This document shows, piece after piece, positions 18,655 to 26,634 of a stretch of 42,741 nucleotides of DNA. The DNA comes from Candidatus Brocadiia bacterium. GTDB lineage: Bacteria; Planctomycetota; DG-23; SLPQ01. The DNA lies in assembly GCA_007131925.1 (NCBI GenBank), contig SLPQ01000065.1, positions 1 to 42,741 on the forward strand. The letters run 5' to 3'. The notes under the pieces are model-generated. The model had not been told where the DNA came from. It saw only the letters and a program-made list of their open reading frames with translations, and searched no databases. A program made the position numbers and the translations under genes. The first letter of the stretch is position 1. Each line of letters opens with the position of its first letter.

Positions 18655-20535
18655 TCAGAGAAAAAATGCCCGGAACCTTTCGATCGTCGTTCGAAAGAGC
18701 ACGTACAGGACATGTCGTCTTCCGGCCTCAATTGAGGCCGATCCGCTCACGCCGACCCGCAGCGCTTCGGTGGTTTCATCATCCATCGGCAGGCACCTGA
18801 CGACAAAGACGTTCTGGCCGGCCATGGGGCGCGTGGTGGGGCTTATGTGGTCGACCCGCCAGCGATAAACCACGTTGGGGGCGCCGCTGAGCGCAAACTT
18901 GACCGTATTACCCACCTCCACAAAGCGTATATCCCTCTCTTGGACCTCCACCTCGAGTACGAGCTGGGAGATATCCGCGATCTCAGTCAGGGGATCCCCG
19001 GCGTTCATAACCGAGTTGAGCGAGGCATTCAGCTGGTCTCGTGGGGTGACGATGAGTCCGTCAATGGGGCTTTTTATTTCCATGCCGGCGAGCCTCAAAC
19101 GGGCGTTTTCCAGCCTGGCGTCGAGGATGCTCAGCTCAATGTCGGCCAGGCTCGCCGCGGCCGGATTGGTCGCGCGCTTGATCTCACGGTCTGCCTCCTT
19201 GAGGTGCATCTGCAGCTCGATGTCCCTGATGGTGTTCAAGACCTCCCGCTGATCCATCACCGCGATCGTCTCCCCGGCCATGACAAAGTCGCCCTCTGTC
19301 TTGAGAAGCCGCTCTATCTTGCCCTGATAGCGAGGCGCGGCAAATGCGCTCACGCGCGGTGCCAGGCGGCACTCACCCCTTATAGTCAGGTCCCAACTTC
19401 CAAAGGCGAGAAATGCCACCGCCGCTGCAATCAGCGCTACCTTCGCCAGAAATCCGATCCTCTGCGACCCGGTAGCCCGTTTCTTTATGGCGGCCGCCTT
19501 GCGGACAAGGCGGATGCCAGGCATCTTTTCGACCTCGCGCGCCCTCAGAAGGGCACCGGCCGACGACCTGCAAAAGCCCTGCACGAGGGAAAAGTCCTGC
19601 GGCGAATGCCCCTGCTGACTGCGCCGCTCAAAGCCCATGACCGCCAGAAGCGAGTCTTGATGCTCCAGGCGCATAAACAGCACCGACTTGTACTCGCTGG
19701 CCTCAAAGTACAGCCGCAGCCTCTCGCGCAGGTCTTCATCCTCCACCTTTTCGAGATATGCCGCGGTAAAGTGCCAGTCACCCCCTATGCGCGCCACCTC
19801 GGATACGAGCTGTCTTAAGTTTTGCACGGCCGCGCCCTGCTGCGAGACGTCGTCGATGCCGGATATGGCAGCTATGCGAAAGCCCGTGCGCGTGGGCAGC
19901 GCCACAAAGGTCCTGTCGAAAAAGACCATCTCCCGGACGCGGTTGGCCAGTGTAAAGGCCATCCGTTCAAGATCATCTGCGCATGCGAGCTCGCTTTCGA
20001 TCTCGGCCAGTTTGGCAAGCCTGCCGGCGGTCTCCTTGCTGCCTCGCAGCTGCAGGTTGGCGAAATATACCACCAGGTATACGCAAAGGCTCTGAAGCGT
20101 GTGAACGTCGTCCCGCGCGTAGGCGGCGTTTTCCCGCTTTCGCCGCGCGAAAAGCACCACCGCCTGCGTGGTCTCATCAAGCTCGACCGGCACGGCTATA
20201 AGGCAGACATCCTGCAGCTCCTGGACCTCCTCACCCTCCTCCGGATAGTACAATACGGGCTGCTTCTGCTCGATTGTGCGGTAGACGATGCGGGTGATGT
20301 TTTCCTCGCTGAGGCTGCTGAGAGGCCCCTCTTCTGGCAGGTGCGATGCCTTCGGCACGAGCTGGCGGTTCTTTGAATCATAGAGCCACAGACTGCCCCC
20401 CTCCGCGGCCATGCCGACATAGAGCATTCGGAAGAATTCCTTGAAGAACTCATCCGGACCAACGTCGCTACGCGCCAGGCGCGCCAGTCTGGCTGCTATG
20501 GGAAGTGTCTGTCTGCCGGTGGTTTCCTGCGCCAA
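18655..20535 (-). CDS. Tandem GAF-like domains + TM helix + HlyD/membrane-fusion protein
   Basis: TTG start after AGGAGG. N-terminal GAF-like region (GSLWLYD..LIAVPV..YARDDVHTL), TM FLAKVALIAAAVAFLAF, APRYQGKIERLLKTEGDFV, IKSPIDGLI, LRVGVSGSASI. Confidence 0.85.
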   Translation of the reverse strand: MAQETTGRQTLPIAARLARLARSDVGPDEFFKEFFRMLYVGMAAEGGSLWLYDSKNRQLVPKASHLPEEGPLSSLSEENITRIVYRTIEQKQPVLYYPEEGEEVQELQDVCLIAVPVELDETTQAVVLFARRKRENAAYARDDVHTLQSLCVYLVVYFANLQLRGSKETAGRLAKLAEIESELACADDLERMAFTLANRVREMVFFDRTFVALPTRTGFRIAAISGIDDVSQQGAAVQNLRQLVSEVARIGGDWHFTAAYLEKVEDEDLRERLRLYFEASEYKSVLFMRLEHQDSLLAVMGFERRSQQGHSPQDFSLVQGFCRSSAGALLRAREVEKMPGIRLVRKAAAIKKRATGSQRIGFLAKVALIAAAVAFLAFGSWDLTIRGECRLAPRVSAFAAPRYQGKIERLLKTEGDFVMAGETIAVMDQREVLNTIRDIELQMHLKEADREIKRATNPAAASLADIELSILDARLENARLRLAGMEIKSPIDGLIVTPRDQLNASLNSVMNAGDPLTEIADISQLVLEVEVQERDIRFVEVGNTVKFALSGAPNVVYRWRVDHISPTTRPMAGQNVFVVRCLPMDDETTEALRVGVSGSASIEAGRRHVLYVLFRTTIERFRAFFL

Positions 20536-21672: not shown

Positions 21673-23604
21673 ATGGACAAGAGAACCGTTGCCGCCGTTG
21701 CCATCACCATTGCCTTTTTCGTGATATGGTCATGGCTGATCTTGCCGTACTTTGGAATAGGCCCAGCCCCTGTCGAGGATGAGACACCGGCTGTCGAGCG
21801 GGATGTCCCAGTCGATGAGCTGCCTGTCGAGCCGACACCTGCGGAGCCGGTTACGCCGCCTGTTGCAGTGCCGCCGGTCGAGCCGGTGCCTGAGAGAGAG
21901 GCAGCTGTCGCGCCGGACGAAGATGTAGATGTGATCAGCCCGGACTACGTCATACCGCCTGAATACAGGCAGGAGAACCTTCAGGATGCCCTGATCACCG
22001 TCGAGACCGACCTGCTCAGCGTTGACTTCACGGCAATGACCGGCTCGGTAAAGAGTGTAACTCTGAAGGAATACGAAGACTTTGAGAGAACCGGCAACCT
22101 CGTGCTGCTCGAGGATTTCACCGAGGGCATATTTCCCACTGAGATCGCCCAGATCGAAGGGCTTGACATCAGTGACCGCCTGTGGCGGCTCGAGCAGGAA
22201 CCTCTCGCCGACGAAGACGGCATAACGCGCGTTTCTTTTGCCACGATCCTTGAGCACGGCATTGCCGTGACCAAAACCTACATCCTGTATCCGGACAGGT
22301 ATGGATTTGCACTCCAGGTGCAAGTGGAAAACCTGCTCGACTCGACACGCCGCATTTCGTACGAAATCCTCGGCCCCACGGGCGTCCCCTCAGAGGACGT
22401 CGCAAAAAATGACGTCCAGGGAGTGCTCGCGACCGTGCCCGCCGAAGCCGGGCTCGAAGGCAAGATGGATGTCAGTATGCGTGCAGCGGCCAGCCTGATC
22501 ACCGAAGGAAGAAACAGGGGCCGACTTGTTACCGACCCCACTATGCGCGTCACCTTCGCCGGCGCTCTCAACAGGTATTTCGCATCCGTACTGCGCCCCT
22601 CCATCGACGTGCCTGTCGATAGGGCATGGAGCGACGCCTATTACGACAGCGCCCTGGGCATAACCGAGCTTGAGGGGCTCACCGCCGAAGATGCACGTCA
22701 CAGATACACTCCTGAGCAGCGGGGCAATATCGCAAGCTATTTTTACACCGCCGGCTCAGGCTTCGTGGTAAACACAGGTGAGCTTGCACCTTTCGGCAGC
22801 GCGGGGTCGGCTGTTGTGCACGACTACCTGATGTACAGCGGCCCGAAGGAGAGCCAGGCGCTGGCGGGTTTTGACACGGAGGCATTCAGGACGGGCTTTC
22901 CGGTGCTCCTGGACTACGGGATGCTCGAGCCGCTCGTCAAACTCATCCTGATACTCTTGCGCGCCTTCTATATCGCTATCCCCAACTGGGGTATTGCGAT
23001 TATTATCCTGACGCTCGTGATGCGCGGAGCCATGCACCCGCTGATGCGCAAGAGCCAGGTTTCCATGGCCAAGATGCAAAAGCTGCAACCGCAGATCAAG
23101 AAGCTCCAGGAAAAATACAAGAAGGACAAGCAGCGCCTTGGCCAGGAACAGATGAAGCTTATGAAGGAGTCAGGCGCAAACCCGCTTGGCGGCTGCCTGC
23201 CCATGCTTATACAGCTGCCTATCTTCTTCGCGCTTTACCGCTCGCTGATGCTGTCGATAGAGCTCAGACATGCCCCTTTCATCCTATGGATCAACGACCT
23301 AGCTCAGCCCGACAGACTGATGGAGCTGCCGTTTGTCCTGCCGCTTCTGGGAACCCCCTGGCTGAACCTGCTGCCGATAGCCATGGTAAGCTCCATGATA
23401 GTCCAGCAGCGCATGATGCCGAAGGGAGCTACGCCTGAGGCAGCCCAGCAGCAGCGGCTGATGGCATTTTTCATGCCTGTCTTCATAGGTTTCATACTGT
23501 ACAATCTCGCTGCCGGGCTCAACCTTTACATCTTTACCAGCACCGTGTTCGGCATTGCCGAGCAGTGGTGGGTGAAACGACACCTTGCCGCGCAGGAAGG
23601 CTGA
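21673..23604 (+). CDS. yidC: Membrane protein insertase YidC
   Basis: N-terminal TM helix, Pro/Glu-rich linker, large periplasmic domain, then NWGIAIIILTL, MQKLQPQIKKLQEKYK, NPLGGCLPMLIQLPIFFALY, WINDLAQPD. Confidence 0.95.
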   Translation: MDKRTVAAVAITIAFFVIWSWLILPYFGIGPAPVEDETPAVERDVPVDELPVEPTPAEPVTPPVAVPPVEPVPEREAAVAPDEDVDVISPDYVIPPEYRQENLQDALITVETDLLSVDFTAMTGSVKSVTLKEYEDFERTGNLVLLEDFTEGIFPTEIAQIEGLDISDRLWRLEQEPLADEDGITRVSFATILEHGIAVTKTYILYPDRYGFALQVQVENLLDSTRRISYEILGPTGVPSEDVAKNDVQGVLATVPAEAGLEGKMDVSMRAAASLITEGRNRGRLVTDPTMRVTFAGALNRYFASVLRPSIDVPVDRAWSDAYYDSALGITELEGLTAEDARHRYTPEQRGNIASYFYTAGSGFVVNTGELAPFGSAGSAVVHDYLMYSGPKESQALAGFDTEAFRTGFPVLLDYGMLEPLVKLILILLRAFYIAIPNWGIAIIILTLVMRGAMHPLMRKSQVSMAKMQKLQPQIKKLQEKYKKDKQRLGQEQMKLMKESGANPLGGCLPMLIQLPIFFALYRSLMLSIELRHAPFILWINDLAQPDRLMELPFVLPLLGTPWLNLLPIAMVSSMIVQQRMMPKGATPEAAQQQRLMAFFMPVFIGFILYNLAAGLNLYIFTSTVFGIAEQWWVKRHLAAQEG

Positions 23605-23842
23605 GAAAGTCTCTGTACCTTCACTCTCGATGCGCAAGGCCTTTCAAGCTTCTCGCGGCGCCGTCGCCGCGTGGACACTCCTGCGCATCGAGGCTGCCCT
23701 GCTTCTGGTAAGATCTGCACAGAAAGCCACCTCAAGAAAACGGCAAATCAGCCACTCCCCGTGCGGCCACTCCGGGCGAGTGCAATGCCCTGAGATCAGA
23801 GCTCGCCTTTGTCGGCGCAGGCGCTCAATGCGGGAACGCGCC

Positions 23843-23928
23843 AAATAAAAAACCCCTGCGACGCCTTGCTGAGTTAAAGTAGCAGGAACGAACATATAGG
23901 GGGATGGCGCCAGCGACCGCAGGGGTTT
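23843..23928 (-). terminator. 3' stem plus U-tract (terminator-like domain) of the candidate sRNA
   Basis: Minus strand AAACCCCUGCG...CGCAGGGGUUU followed by UUUAUUU. The interior is additionally paired (GGCGCC/GGCGUC, UGCU/AGCA). The loop is larger than in a textbook terminator. Confidence 0.6.
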
Positions 23929-24165
23929 GTCTTTCTGCCGGGGACAAGTTCGACACTTACATGGCCACACCCTGTATGCCGCTCATCCCCGAAACAGTAT
24001 GGGGAGGCGAGCAGGCCCCTCAAGAGCCCGCTCGACAATCTCCAACAGCGTCTTTTCAAAGATCTACCCGGCGTTTCAAAAACAAGAGCAGTTACGAAAC
24101 GTTTGTCGCCATGTCGGCGGGTCATTTCGTTCCTGCAGTTGGCGGCAAAAACACAACGCCGCCGA
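23843..24165 (-). ncRNA. Candidate sigma-54-dependent structured small RNA (~320 nt), no family recognised
   Basis: Lies between a perfect sigma-54 promoter and a terminal stem plus U-tract. It has several hairpins and an 11-nt long-range complementarity, and no credible ORF. Confidence 0.6.
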
Positions 24166-24174
24166 CACACCATG

Positions 24175-24190
24175 AGCAATAGCCGTGCCA
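24175..24190 (-). promoter_or_regulatory. Sigma-54 (RpoN) -24/-12 promoter
   Basis: TGGCACGGCTATTGCT is an exact match to the TGGCACG-N4-TTGCW consensus. Predicted +1 near 24164. Confidence 0.8.
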
Positions 24191-24346
24191 AAAGCCCTTA
24201 CAAAGTAACACTCGCCAAGCATGCGCACAATGACCGTCACCGTAACCTATGGATGATTAAGGGCTTGAGACCATCTTGAATGATGATCGACACCGGCCGA
24301 ATTTCGGTTGATCCGGGATCGCGGGGGCATGTGTGGATGCACCGGA

Positions 24347-24456
24347 TGTATATCGCGCTATACATCTCCGCCGCGGCAAAGATCGTAACAGAAGGTGTCA
24401 TACAGTGTTAGACAGATATGTACTGTTCCGCTATACAGTGTATAGGGCCGAATACA
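24347..24456. promoter_or_regulatory. Cluster of four palindromic upstream activator-like sites
   Basis: TGTA-N10-TACA (24347-24364), TGTC-N11-GACA (24396-24414), TGTA-N11-TACA (24419-24437) and TGTA-N10-TACA (24439-24456), 157-266 bp upstream of the sigma-54 site. Confidence 0.55.
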
Positions 24457-24462
24457 TGCACG

Positions 24463-25422
24463 CTAAGCGCACCGGATGCGCCTGCGCCACCATGAGAGTA
24501 GCCCTGCAAGGCTCTCTTCGATAGGGGTTCTGCCGGGCTGCCAGCCCGTCCTGTAACGAAACTTGGTGTTATCCCCCACCACTACCGGCGTGTCCGACGG
24601 GCGCATCTTGGCCTGATCAGCGACAACCTCTATCTCGCAGGAGGCCATTTTAAGCAGAATCTCAAGAATGTGCCCAACTTCAACAGCTCTACCGCTGGCG
24701 ACATTGTATATCTCGCCCGCCTCGCCTTTCTGCGCCGCGGCCAGGTATGCACGCGCCACGTCGCGAACGTCGCTGTAATCCCGCATCGAACGAAGGTTTC
24801 CGACCGATATGCGCGGCGGGTCGAGGCCCGCTTCTATTCTCGCTACAGCCATTGCGAAGTCGCTTGGTGCAAAGCCCGGCCCCTGACGGGGTCCGGTGTG
24901 GTTGAAGGGGCGCAATATTACCACTGGCAGGGACTCCGTACGCCATCTTTCGAGGGCTATTATCTCACCTGCCGCCTTGGACGCTGCATAGGGGTTTGAG
25001 GGTTTCACCCGCTTGCTTTCACGTACCGGCGTATCATCGGGCCTGACGTGGCCGTAAACATCCGCCGATGATACGTGGACGATCTTCGAAAGCTTGCAGC
25101 GTGCAATTTGATAGTACAGGTTTGCAGTGCCGAAGGCATTGACCCGCACAGCCTCGGCGGGGCTTTTCAGGGAAAGGGGCACACTGGCAAGCGCGGCAAG
25201 GTGAAATACCCAGTCCGCCCTCAGGCTCGTCAGCGCAGCGGCGAGATCATCAGCGTTGCAGAGGTCCGCGCTGGCCAGGCGCAGACGTCCGGCAAAGCCA
25301 TCAAGTCGGGAGAGATCCTCGCCGGGACGCGCTATTCCGGTGACCTCCAAGCCCTCTTCCAGCAGCAGCTCTGCAAGGTGCGAGCCGGCAAAGCCCGCTA
25401 TGCCTGTTATGACAGCATGCAT
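24463..25422 (-). CDS. rmd: GDP-4-dehydro-6-deoxy-D-mannose reductase (Rmd)-like extended SDR
   Basis: ITGIAGFAGSHL, HLAALASV, SSADVYG, YAASK, RPFNHTGPRQ, GNLRSMRDYSDVRDV. Directly downstream of gmd. Confidence 0.8.
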   Translation of the reverse strand: MHAVITGIAGFAGSHLAELLLEEGLEVTGIARPGEDLSRLDGFAGRLRLASADLCNADDLAAALTSLRADWVFHLAALASVPLSLKSPAEAVRVNAFGTANLYYQIARCKLSKIVHVSSADVYGHVRPDDTPVRESKRVKPSNPYAASKAAGEIIALERWRTESLPVVILRPFNHTGPRQGPGFAPSDFAMAVARIEAGLDPPRISVGNLRSMRDYSDVRDVARAYLAAAQKGEAGEIYNVASGRAVEVGHILEILLKMASCEIEVVADQAKMRPSDTPVVVGDNTKFRYRTGWQPGRTPIEESLAGLLSWWRRRIRCA

Positions 25423-25423
25423 G

Positions 25424-26389
25424 TCACTTCTCACAGGACAGGCGTTCGAGGTCGGCTGCGACCATCATCTCCACCAGTCCGTCAAAATCAACTCGCGGGC
25501 GCCACTTGAGCTGCCTGTGAGCCTTTGAGGCATCGGCGATGAGATGATCCACCTCCGCCGGCCTGAAAAATGCATCATCTATGACCACGTGCTTTTCCCA
25601 GTCGAGGTCTGCCGCGGCAAAGGCCTTTTCCACAAAGTCGCGAACGCTGTGCGACTTTCCTGTCCCGACAACAAAATCAGACGGCTCGTCCTGCTGCAGC
25701 ATCAGCCACATGGCTCTGACGTAGTCACCGGCAAAGCCCCAGTCCCGGTGCGCATCAAGGTTTCCCAGATGCAGCTCGTCCTGAAGCCCCGCCCTGATGC
25801 GCGCGATGCCGTCGGTTATCTTTCGCGTCACAAACTCCCTGCCTCGCCGTGGCGACTCATGGTTAAAAAGTATCCCCGAGCATGCGAAGAGGCCGTACGA
25901 TTCACGATAATTCATCGTAATGTAGTGGCCATAAACCTTGGCTACACCGTACGGGCTGCGCGGATGAAACGGTGTGTCTTCGTTCTGGGGGACCTGGCGG
26001 ACCTTGCCGAACATCTCCGACGAAGATGCCTGGTAAAAGCGTATTCCAGGGTTTACGAGGCGCACCGCCTCGAGCATCCTCGTGACGCCGATGCCGGTAA
26101 ACTCCCCTGTAAGAACGGGCTGCACCCAGGAGGTGGGCACGAAGGACATCGCAGCGAGGTTGTAAAGCTCCTCCGGCTGGACCTCGCGCAGGATGCTTAT
26201 GATGGAGAGCTGGTCGAGCAGATCCGCCTGGTGAAGAATCAGCCGGGGCTTGAGATGCGCAATCCGCTCAAACTTCTCTGTGGACGAGCGGCGCACCATG
26301 CCGTGAACCTCATAACCCTCTTCCAGAAGAAGCTCGGCCAGGTATGAGCCGTCCTGGCCTGTAATGCCGGTTATGAGCGCCCTTTTCAT
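25424..26389 (-). CDS. gmd: GDP-mannose 4,6-dehydratase
   Basis: [58 protein letters not shown]. The start is one of three tandem ATGs (26389-26395). Confidence 0.96.
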
Positions 26390-26634
26390 CATCATTTCCC
26401 CCAAATAAAATTAACAGCCTGCACCGCGGTAGACGTCTTTGCAGCAGTCAGCGTAGTATACACTAAGCCGCGCCCTCTTGCATCAGAATAAGCCCCTTTG
26501 CCGCGCGCAGGCAGCGCGATTGCCCGGGAGCCGTGTATCGCCCCCTGCGCACAGTTGCGGCCCTGGAGGCTCGTGATTAAAATTATGACCTTAGGGCATG
26601 TTTTCACCTTCTTTTTTGCAGAGAGGCGATTTCT

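Follow-up and report, generated by a model that had tools for sequence, protein, structure and literature searches.

The window analysed here is a stretch of 42,741 nucleotides (nt), contig SLPQ01000065.1 (C253 in our numbering) of a Candidatus Brocadiia bacterium in the Planctomycetota. Between the 3' ends of two converging genes, yidC and a GDP-sugar epimerase/reductase-like (fcl-like) gene, lies a gap of 858 base pairs (bp; 23605-24462). Read from its sequence, this gap holds a complete unit of candidate enhancer sites, promoter, predicted RNA and terminator, and the kind is one already known, the sigma-54-dependent small RNA. Two other loci, the metagenome contigs L015 and L016, match the gap downstream of yidC, and together with the window they point to what is very probably a real sigma-54-dependent non-coding RNA gene. 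The parts of the RNA gene are listed below; P(unpaired) is the predicted probability that a base is unpaired.

24190-24175, minus strand: sigma-54 -24/-12 element TGGCACGGCTATTGCT, an exact TGGCAC-N5-TTGCW with exact spacing
23843-24164, minus strand: predicted non-coding transcript of ~320 nt, both ends inferred
24141-24164, minus strand: 5' hairpin CGGCGGC...GCCGCC where the transcript is predicted to begin; L015 has it with another loop, L016 in weaker form
24008-24034, minus strand: hairpin of 11-12 bp, kept in L015, not in L016
24001-24007, minus strand: invariant CCUCCCC, which includes the anti-Shine-Dalgarno core CCUCC; mean P(unpaired) 0.29-0.43
23939-23991, minus strand: middle stem-loop, in which invariant CGGGGA pairs with invariant GUCCCCG; apex variable
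23850-23928, minus strand: terminator stem-loop with a ~18-bp, sequence-invariant stem that includes two G-U pairs
23870-23908, minus strand: terminator loop of 39 nt, nearly invariant, carrying CAUCCCCCUA, GUUCCUGCU and UUAACU
23843-23852, minus strand: intrinsic-terminator U-run UUUUUUAUUU; a T-run follows the stem in all three loci

The sigma-54 promoter and its machinery

The exact sigma-54 promoter claimed by a sequence-only reading of the window is present on the minus strand. The start of the transcript was placed 12 nt past the C of the -12 GC, and its end at the U-run. The terminator is followed only by the 3' end of yidC, a converging gene, and thus, as that reading had also claimed, there is no downstream gene that needs the promoter.

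By itself, the promoter motif is about as frequent as chance. With at most one mismatch, two matches occur in the window against 1.79 expected, and 51 of 100 shuffled sequences hold at least two. The exact motif occurs four times in the 3.03-Mb genome, against ~2.8 expected by our own arithmetic at 59.9% GC. The case that the element is more than chance is therefore made by the promoter, the enhancer spacing and the 3' block being kept in two other loci, and not by the window alone.

The machinery that such a promoter would need is encoded in the genome. The DNA-binding domain of RpoN, on whose gene the proposal depended, was found on contig C135 (204.3 bits), and 10 proteins carry a Sigma54_activat domain (195-247 bits), none of them encoded in the window. 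Other -24/-12 elements stand in front of genes that are plausible for sigma-54 and have clear GGAGG-type ribosome-binding sites; the names given to these genes come from reading their translations and not from Pfam. Two good elements of the form TTTGGCATGG-N-ATTGC lie ~1.1 kb apart on the plus strand of contig C69 (positions 1927 and 3053), each upstream of a pilin-like gene whose product, as translated, begins with a prepilin-type (G)FTLIEL segment. Further elements stand before an Hsp20-like gene (C20:14180), response regulators (C30:1372 and C154:3387), a hydrogenase-small-subunit-like gene (C34:1709) and a MraY/WecA-like gene (C119:25337).

Conservation of the unit in two other loci

L015 and L016 come from a scan of metagenome contigs anchored on YidC, which returned eight loci; these two match the gap by BLAST, with 78% identity over 202 nt (L015) and 84% over 83 nt (L016). 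Across the whole gene, YidC identity to the window is 67% for L015 and 54% for L016. In each of them a sigma-54 element lies on the strand that does not encode yidC, TGGCATGGCTGTTGCT in L015 (TGGCAT-N5-TTGCT) and TGGCACGCTGTTTGCT in L016 (TGGCAC-N5-TTGCT), and CAT directly follows the -24/-12 element in all three loci. The motif was found in none of 18 other foreign loci; among these are 11 loci with yidC, taken from 8 genomes of the class. The gene order of L016 is that of the window, with metallophosphoesterase and yidC genes converging on the RNA, then a fcl-like gene and gmd; the L015 contig, 4.5 kb long, breaks off upstream of the promoter region.

The most conserved part is a 3' domain of ~155 nt, present in all three loci and composed of CCUCCCCAUA, CGGGGAYG...CGUCCCC around a variable apex, the ~18-bp stem and the U-run. 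Pairwise identities of the terminator stem-loop are 75/79, 65/79 and 68/79, whereas third codon positions of yidC are only 41-48% identical between pairs (45% for the window against L015 and 42% against L016). By this comparison the 3' block is conserved far above neutral. The terminal loop spans 33-39 nt across the three loci and keeps the order ...GCCAUCCCCCUA...GUUCCUGCU...UUAACU..., and the 5' hairpin and the 11-12-bp hairpin can be aligned between the window and L015. Conservation of the promoter and of the 3' helices in relatives, on which the sequence-only reading had staked its proposal, is thus seen in both L015 and L016.

Candidate enhancer sites

Two further candidate elements lie upstream of the promoter, with offsets counted from the T of TGGCAC:

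24439-24456, no strand assigned: distal candidate enhancer, TGTAT-N8-ATACA, at -266..-249
24347-24364, no strand assigned: proximal candidate enhancer, TGTAT-N8-ATACA, at -174..-157, 92 bp from the distal site

The distal site overlaps a second palindrome, TATACA-N1-TGTATA, at 24432-24444. L015 has TGTAT-N8-ATACA at the identical offset of -266..-249 and a TGTAT-N3-ATACA that ends at -157; L016 has TATAC half-sites at -266..-262 and -174..-170. The offsets of the paired AT-rich sites, -266 and -174, are thus identical across all three loci, and the DNA between the two sites cannot be aligned among them. TGTAT-N8-ATACA occurs three times in the whole genome, twice at the RNA locus, and the two TGTATA/TATACA hexamer palindromes at the locus are the only ones in the genome. 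Two candidate sites, 92 bp apart and at a fixed distance from the -24 element, are as expected for what an enhancer-binding protein would use.

The third genomic copy of TGTAT-N8-ATACA (C47:2343) was rejected as a comparable site, since it lies within coding-like sequence and no -24/-12 element stands at enhancer distance from it. A sigma-54-like element, TTTGGCCCGGGTTTTGCA, does occur on the plus strand of the same contig (C47:1945), ~150 nt upstream of an open reading frame (ORF) with the start region GGAAGGGGGTACCTATG; the C47:2343 site is 400 nt downstream of this element, inside that ORF, and has no evident link to the RNA locus.

Predicted structure of the RNA

The minus strand of the predicted transcript folds somewhat more stably than shuffled sequences, both in the window (z -2.82; 1 of 100 shuffles as good) and in L015 (z -3.21; 0 of 100); the plus strand of the window gives z -1.97, with 4 of 100 shuffles as good. 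The helices named by the sequence-only reading, namely the 24034-24008 hairpin, UCCCC/GGGGA, the terminal stem and a long-range helix between 24167-24159 and 24120-24112, can all be formed by the sequence. The long-range helix is not kept in L015, and the conserved alternative to it is the local 5' hairpin at 24164-24141. The hairpin at 24034-24008 is preserved in L015 through changes of A-U to G-C and of G-U to A-U, and in the apical helix of the middle stem-loop five of the eight pairs are changed on both sides among the three sequences. The arms of the terminal stem, AAACCCCUGCG/CGCAGGGGUUU, are followed by UUUUUUAUUU.

The 3' domain contains three invariant UCCCC motifs and one GGGGA. Only the copy in the terminator loop is predicted to be open, the loop motif CAUCCCCCUA having P(unpaired) of 0.81-0.92 in all three sequences; for the other two copies the values are 0.29-0.43 (within CCUCCCC, partly open) and 0.00-0.09. 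The predicted partner of GGGGA is the middle GUCCCC, again in all three.

Non-coding pattern and strand

The substitution pattern of the region is that of non-coding sequence. Mismatches between the window and L015 are spread evenly over the three phases (34/34/33, p 0.99), as are those between the window and L016 (35/40/42), whereas in yidC the final 600 nt yield 21/9/94 (p 6e-23). The lengths of gap runs are 1, 2, 4 and 9 nt for the RNA and 3 and 3 for yidC. Outside the invariant block, the three loci share no ORF in any of the six frames; inside it, L016 lacks 3 nt at one place and 1 nt at another. ORFs in the gap reach 108 amino acids (aa), a length expected at 60% GC, and the four that were searched have no Pfam match. 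These results agree with the earlier claim that the gap has no credible ORF, and the conserved coding signature that would have refuted the proposal is not seen: no periodicity, non-triplet indels, no shared ORF and no Pfam match.

On the minus strand all three loci have a T-run after the stem, on the plus strand only the window has one, and the two G-U pairs that the stem has in all three would be A-C mismatches on the opposite strand. Because of these G-U pairs, and because L015 and L016 have no plus-strand T-run, use of the plus strand is disfavoured.

Known families and distribution

The sequence-only reading had not recognized tmRNA, RNase P, signal recognition particle (SRP) RNA or 6S RNA, and had proposed a check against Rfam. 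None of the Rfam 15 covariance models, that of Qrr included, reaches its gathering score anywhere in the window. When matches in 23550-24500 were listed up to an E value of 10, PYLIS_2 as the best match (19.4 bits, where the cut-off is 36; E 0.078), a snoRNA and narK appeared, all at chance level. A 6S identity was rejected, as the window has no 6S match and the genome has a 6S candidate elsewhere (L060, C228:9767-9950; 46.3 bits against a gathering score of 46.4, E 4.4e-8). A CsrA sponge of the CsrB/RsmZ type was also rejected: there are three GGA in the 322 nt, none of them in a predicted hairpin loop. CsrA itself is encoded on contig C168.

Homologues were sought at several distances. The genome has no second copy of the RNA, which is therefore single copy. 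BLAST with the whole gap gave no match in 40 genomes of related species. Covariance model R1, run on 12 genomes of the class, did not find the RNA in the 11 other than our own and returned three weak foreign hits (E 0.026-0.33), with no sigma-54-like motif within 600 nt upstream. The two genomes of the same family lack an assembled 3' region of yidC: in one, a contig end cuts the gene off after 138 codons, and the other has no yidC match. At the level of the phylum, BLAST with a 93-nt block against 400 genomes gave no fragment longer than 38 nt (best E 0.001), and model R1 had no match in 150 genomes. The loop pattern had no match in viral contigs, and in one genome per species (185,579 species) it returned five stretches, all of unrelated sequence.

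In four of these five (L024-L027, from unrelated genomes) the stretch reads N-P-S-P-Y-M-F-L-L, which we take to be an anthranilate-synthase-type motif. The invariant loop segment CCAUCCCCCUAUAUGUUC (window 23890-23906), of which three letters are deleted in L016, can encode P-S-P-Y-M-F, and the pattern scan therefore caught genes for N-P-S-P-Y-M-F-L-L; we take this likeness as coincidence. None of the literature matches listed concerns a sigma-54 small RNA of Planctomycetes or Planctomycetota.

The predicted RNA thus belongs to an undescribed family with three known members. The interpretation offered by the sequence-only reading, a signal-activated sigma-54 regulatory RNA of an unknown family, is supported by the presence of rpoN, the conservation, the non-coding pattern and the lack of an Rfam match, and further by the paired AT-rich sites.

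The surrounding genes and other features of the window

The genome consists of 257 contigs with a GC content of 59.9%, and is 91% complete. The sequencing run with the full stretch has its source labelled as a soda-lake metagenome. The genes that bracket the gap are:

21673-23604, plus strand: yidC, with 60KD_IMP and YidC_periplas domains; its 3' end faces the gap
24463-25434, minus strand: GDP-sugar epimerase/reductase-like (fcl-like) gene; its 3' end faces the gap
25424-26404, minus strand: GDP-mannose 4,6-dehydratase gene (gmd), which precedes the fcl-like gene

As listed, the gmd and epimerase ORFs share 11 nt (25424-25434). This overlap suggests translational coupling within an operon of the GDP-fucose type, whose end is ~270 nt short of the sigma-54 promoter. 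From the yidC stop to the 3' end of the RNA there are ~240 nt in the window, as against ~20-50 nt in L015 and L016. The extra stretch (23605-23842) is unconserved; at 23744-23726 its minus strand has a weak hairpin that resembles a terminator. Contigs from runs X2 and X3 are identical to the window wherever they overlap it, with no variants and no ends.

Away from the gap, positions 18655-20535 (minus strand) encode a 626-aa protein with N-terminal GAF domains and a HlyD/CusB-type membrane-fusion barrel-sandwich domain, to our knowledge an unusual pairing in one protein.

A proposed mechanism and its alternatives

We hypothesize that an enhancer-binding protein sits at the two AT-rich sites, ~190 and ~280 bp upstream of the transcription start, and that, once bound, it would switch on sigma-54 RNA polymerase at TGGCAC-N5-TTGCT. 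Transcription would run leftward and stop at the long stem-loop and U-run, with no protein product. The functional part of the RNA would be its 3' ~155 nt, consisting of the CCUCCCC linker, the GGGGA/UCCCC stem-loop and the terminator hairpin, whose large, unpaired and invariant loop would display CAUCCCCCUA and GUUCCUGCU. Acting in trans, the C/U-rich stretches could pair with G-rich Shine-Dalgarno regions, and so block translation of the target mRNAs upon the activating signal. GGAG-type Shine-Dalgarno sites occur in 1195 of 2411 crude start regions of the genome, and since the organism uses sites of this type, pairing of a C/U-rich loop with G-rich ribosome-binding sites is the simplest mechanism; RoxS and FsrA (PMC8216469), as well as Qrr at hapR (PMC13501541), are described as working in this way. 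We lean, with some reserve, towards this reading as a whole, in which a stand-alone, enhancer-activated sigma-54 RNA pairs with ribosome-binding sites. For its last step, base-pairing to ribosome-binding sites, our support is tentative and falls short of even.

Several results weigh against this reading. On the side of targets, the C/U-rich seeds pair no better with the 2411 start regions than shuffled seeds do; the seed from loop A, for instance, gives 276 duplexes at or below -18 kcal/mol, against 173-469 for five shuffles. None of the start regions of neighbouring genes in the three loci stands out as a target, Hfq was not found in the 91% complete genome, and the ~85-nt invariant block with its fixed 18-bp stem exceeds what a pairing seed needs. 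A genome-wide duplex scan, which covered contigs up to C63, also returned implausibly strong duplexes everywhere and no target signal. It is because the shuffled seeds do equally well, the neighbours are unremarkable, Hfq was not found and the stem is over-conserved that we hold the pairing mechanism only tentatively. On the side of the RNA itself, the L016 promoter lies ~210 nt further upstream, which gives a predicted RNA of ~530 nt with an unrelated 5' part; the common unit is therefore the promoter, the 3' domain and the terminator. Covariation is weak because only three members of the family are known: 7 of 36 pairs are changed on both sides, a level matched by 8 of 500 shuffles, with a structure derived from the same three sequences, and the long terminal stem has no covariation at all. 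Finally, the runs listed as holding the 858-bp gap comprise three DNA contig holders and no RNA run.

Some of these results would fit an RNA that is real and driven by sigma-54 and acts through its invariant 3' stem-loop, by binding a protein or ligand (for example as a decoy for an RNA-binding protein) or as a structured module of another sort, and not by pairing with mRNA. Such an RNA could explain why the ~18-bp stem and the 39-nt loop are invariant, with no compensatory change, where neutral sites are near saturation, and it agrees with target scans that gave no excess pairing and with the failure to find Hfq. Several observations stand against it: the CsrA-type signature is missing (of the three GGA in the 322 nt, no copy falls in a predicted hairpin loop), searches of the 91% complete genome gave neither KhpA/B nor R3H domains, no Rfam match to known protein-binding RNAs was obtained, the loop is predicted to be unstructured, and no partner emerged. 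We consider this explanation unlikely, if still worth weighing. Less likely again is a reading in which the invariant ~85-nt 3' module goes beyond a pairing seed and forms a structured RNA of a new type, made only on a sigma-54 signal and serving as a switch or as a platform for a protein or ligand. Its features would be the 18-bp stem of fixed sequence, two G-U pairs included, the fixed 39-nt loop, and a preceding GGGGA able to pair with any of the three UCCCC.

Other explanations dispense with an RNA gene of this kind. The stem-loop could mainly serve to terminate transcripts of the gmd-fcl operon or of yidC, or to stabilize their 3' ends; the sigma-54 element would then be secondary or due to chance, and there would be no independent RNA gene. 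The element does lie ~270 nt past the stop of the fcl-like gene, on that gene's strand, and our scan gave no strong terminator in the interval; in L015 and L016 the stem-loop is merely ~20-50 nt past the yidC stop, and the exact promoter motif is near its chance frequency. However, a same-strand sigma-54 element recurs in the three loci together with identically offset AT-rich pairs, and by our own arithmetic the chance of the relaxed motif within ~650 nt is ~1e-3 per locus. A terminator needs neither an invariant 39-nt loop nor an upstream module of CCUCCCC and GGGGA/UCCCC, and the G-U pairs and the absence of a T-run in L015 and L016 disfavour use on the plus strand. We judge this explanation improbable. 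That the promoter drives a small protein gene, such as the frame 24126-23874 that starts with ATG after AGGAAC, seems highly improbable. An open frame of 105 aa does span 23874-24191, and it includes an ATG inside the frame as well as an AGGA-like site, but it has no Pfam match, the equivalent ATG in L015 opens a frame of six codons, and no ORF is common to the three loci. The lack of substitution periodicity, the indels of 1, 2 and 4 nt, and a 1-nt deletion within the invariant block of L016 also speak against it. We give equally little credit to a chance promoter-like motif in a decayed intergenic remnant with no function. The near-chance frequency of the motif, the lack of an RNA run among the listed holders of the gap and the lack of a homologue in the species-representative genomes searched are in keeping with such a remnant, but it is strongly disfavoured by a 3' block conserved far above neutral and by a promoter and enhancer spacing kept in three loci.

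Relation to known systems and significance

The predicted RNA shares with the quorum regulatory RNAs Qrr1-5 of Vibrio, which act with LuxO and sigma-54, the layout of a stand-alone small-RNA gene with an enhancer-activated sigma-54 promoter, its own terminator and no ORF. Qrr RNAs are ~100 nt long. The RNA in the window differs in being ~320 nt and single copy, in the lack of a detected Hfq, in its TGTAT-N8-ATACA site, in its lineage and in having no Rfam match. Qrr RNAs are described as repressing their targets at the ribosome-binding site, as in hapR (PMC13501541; PMC10162802, PMC3730234). There is also a likeness to GlmY/GlmZ of Enterobacteriaceae and CrcZ of Pseudomonas, which combine sigma-54 with a dedicated activator at upstream sites. 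The predicted RNA differs from GlmY and CrcZ in having no repeats of the kind that those two carry and no homology to them in Rfam. CrcZ is sigma-54-dependent with CbrB as its activator, and both GlmY and CrcZ are protein decoys with their own repeated motifs. For GlmY/GlmZ, sigma-54 with a dedicated activator on upstream sites is described in PMC3045617.

RoxS/RsaE, FsrA and CsfG of Firmicutes have several CCCC-type motifs, and the predicted RNA likewise has three invariant UCCCC, one of them in a loop predicted to be exposed. One source states that the C-rich stretches in RoxS and FsrA pair with targets, and that the G-C pairs are essential (PMC8216469). Compared with this type, the predicted RNA has no Rfam match, and its pairing with Shine-Dalgarno sequences did not stand out statistically. 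RoxS/RsaE, FsrA and CsfG are shorter, and their promoters are sigma-A-type or other, not sigma-54. Pxr of Myxococcus, an example from outside the proteobacterial models, acts in development, has a promoter of the sigma-54 type and forms several stem-loops; the region here has no match to any Rfam family.

Regulatory RNAs are almost unknown beyond Proteobacteria and Firmicutes. In one survey, Rfam small-RNA families number 8 for the whole Planctomycetes-Verrucomicrobia-Chlamydiae (PVC) group and 345 for Proteobacteria (Table 1, PMC9029176). Here, a whole putative regulatory unit is legible from sequence alone in an uncultured soda-lake lineage. The understanding of sigma-54 small RNAs in general would be unchanged, unless the invariant module does more than base-pair; if it is indeed a structured module, the finding would represent a new class of enhancer-controlled riboregulator in a lineage without Hfq. 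For this lineage, the unit may offer an entry point to signal-dependent RNA regulation, in that the site motif could be matched to one of the 10 activators and the loop could be used as bait for targets or partners.

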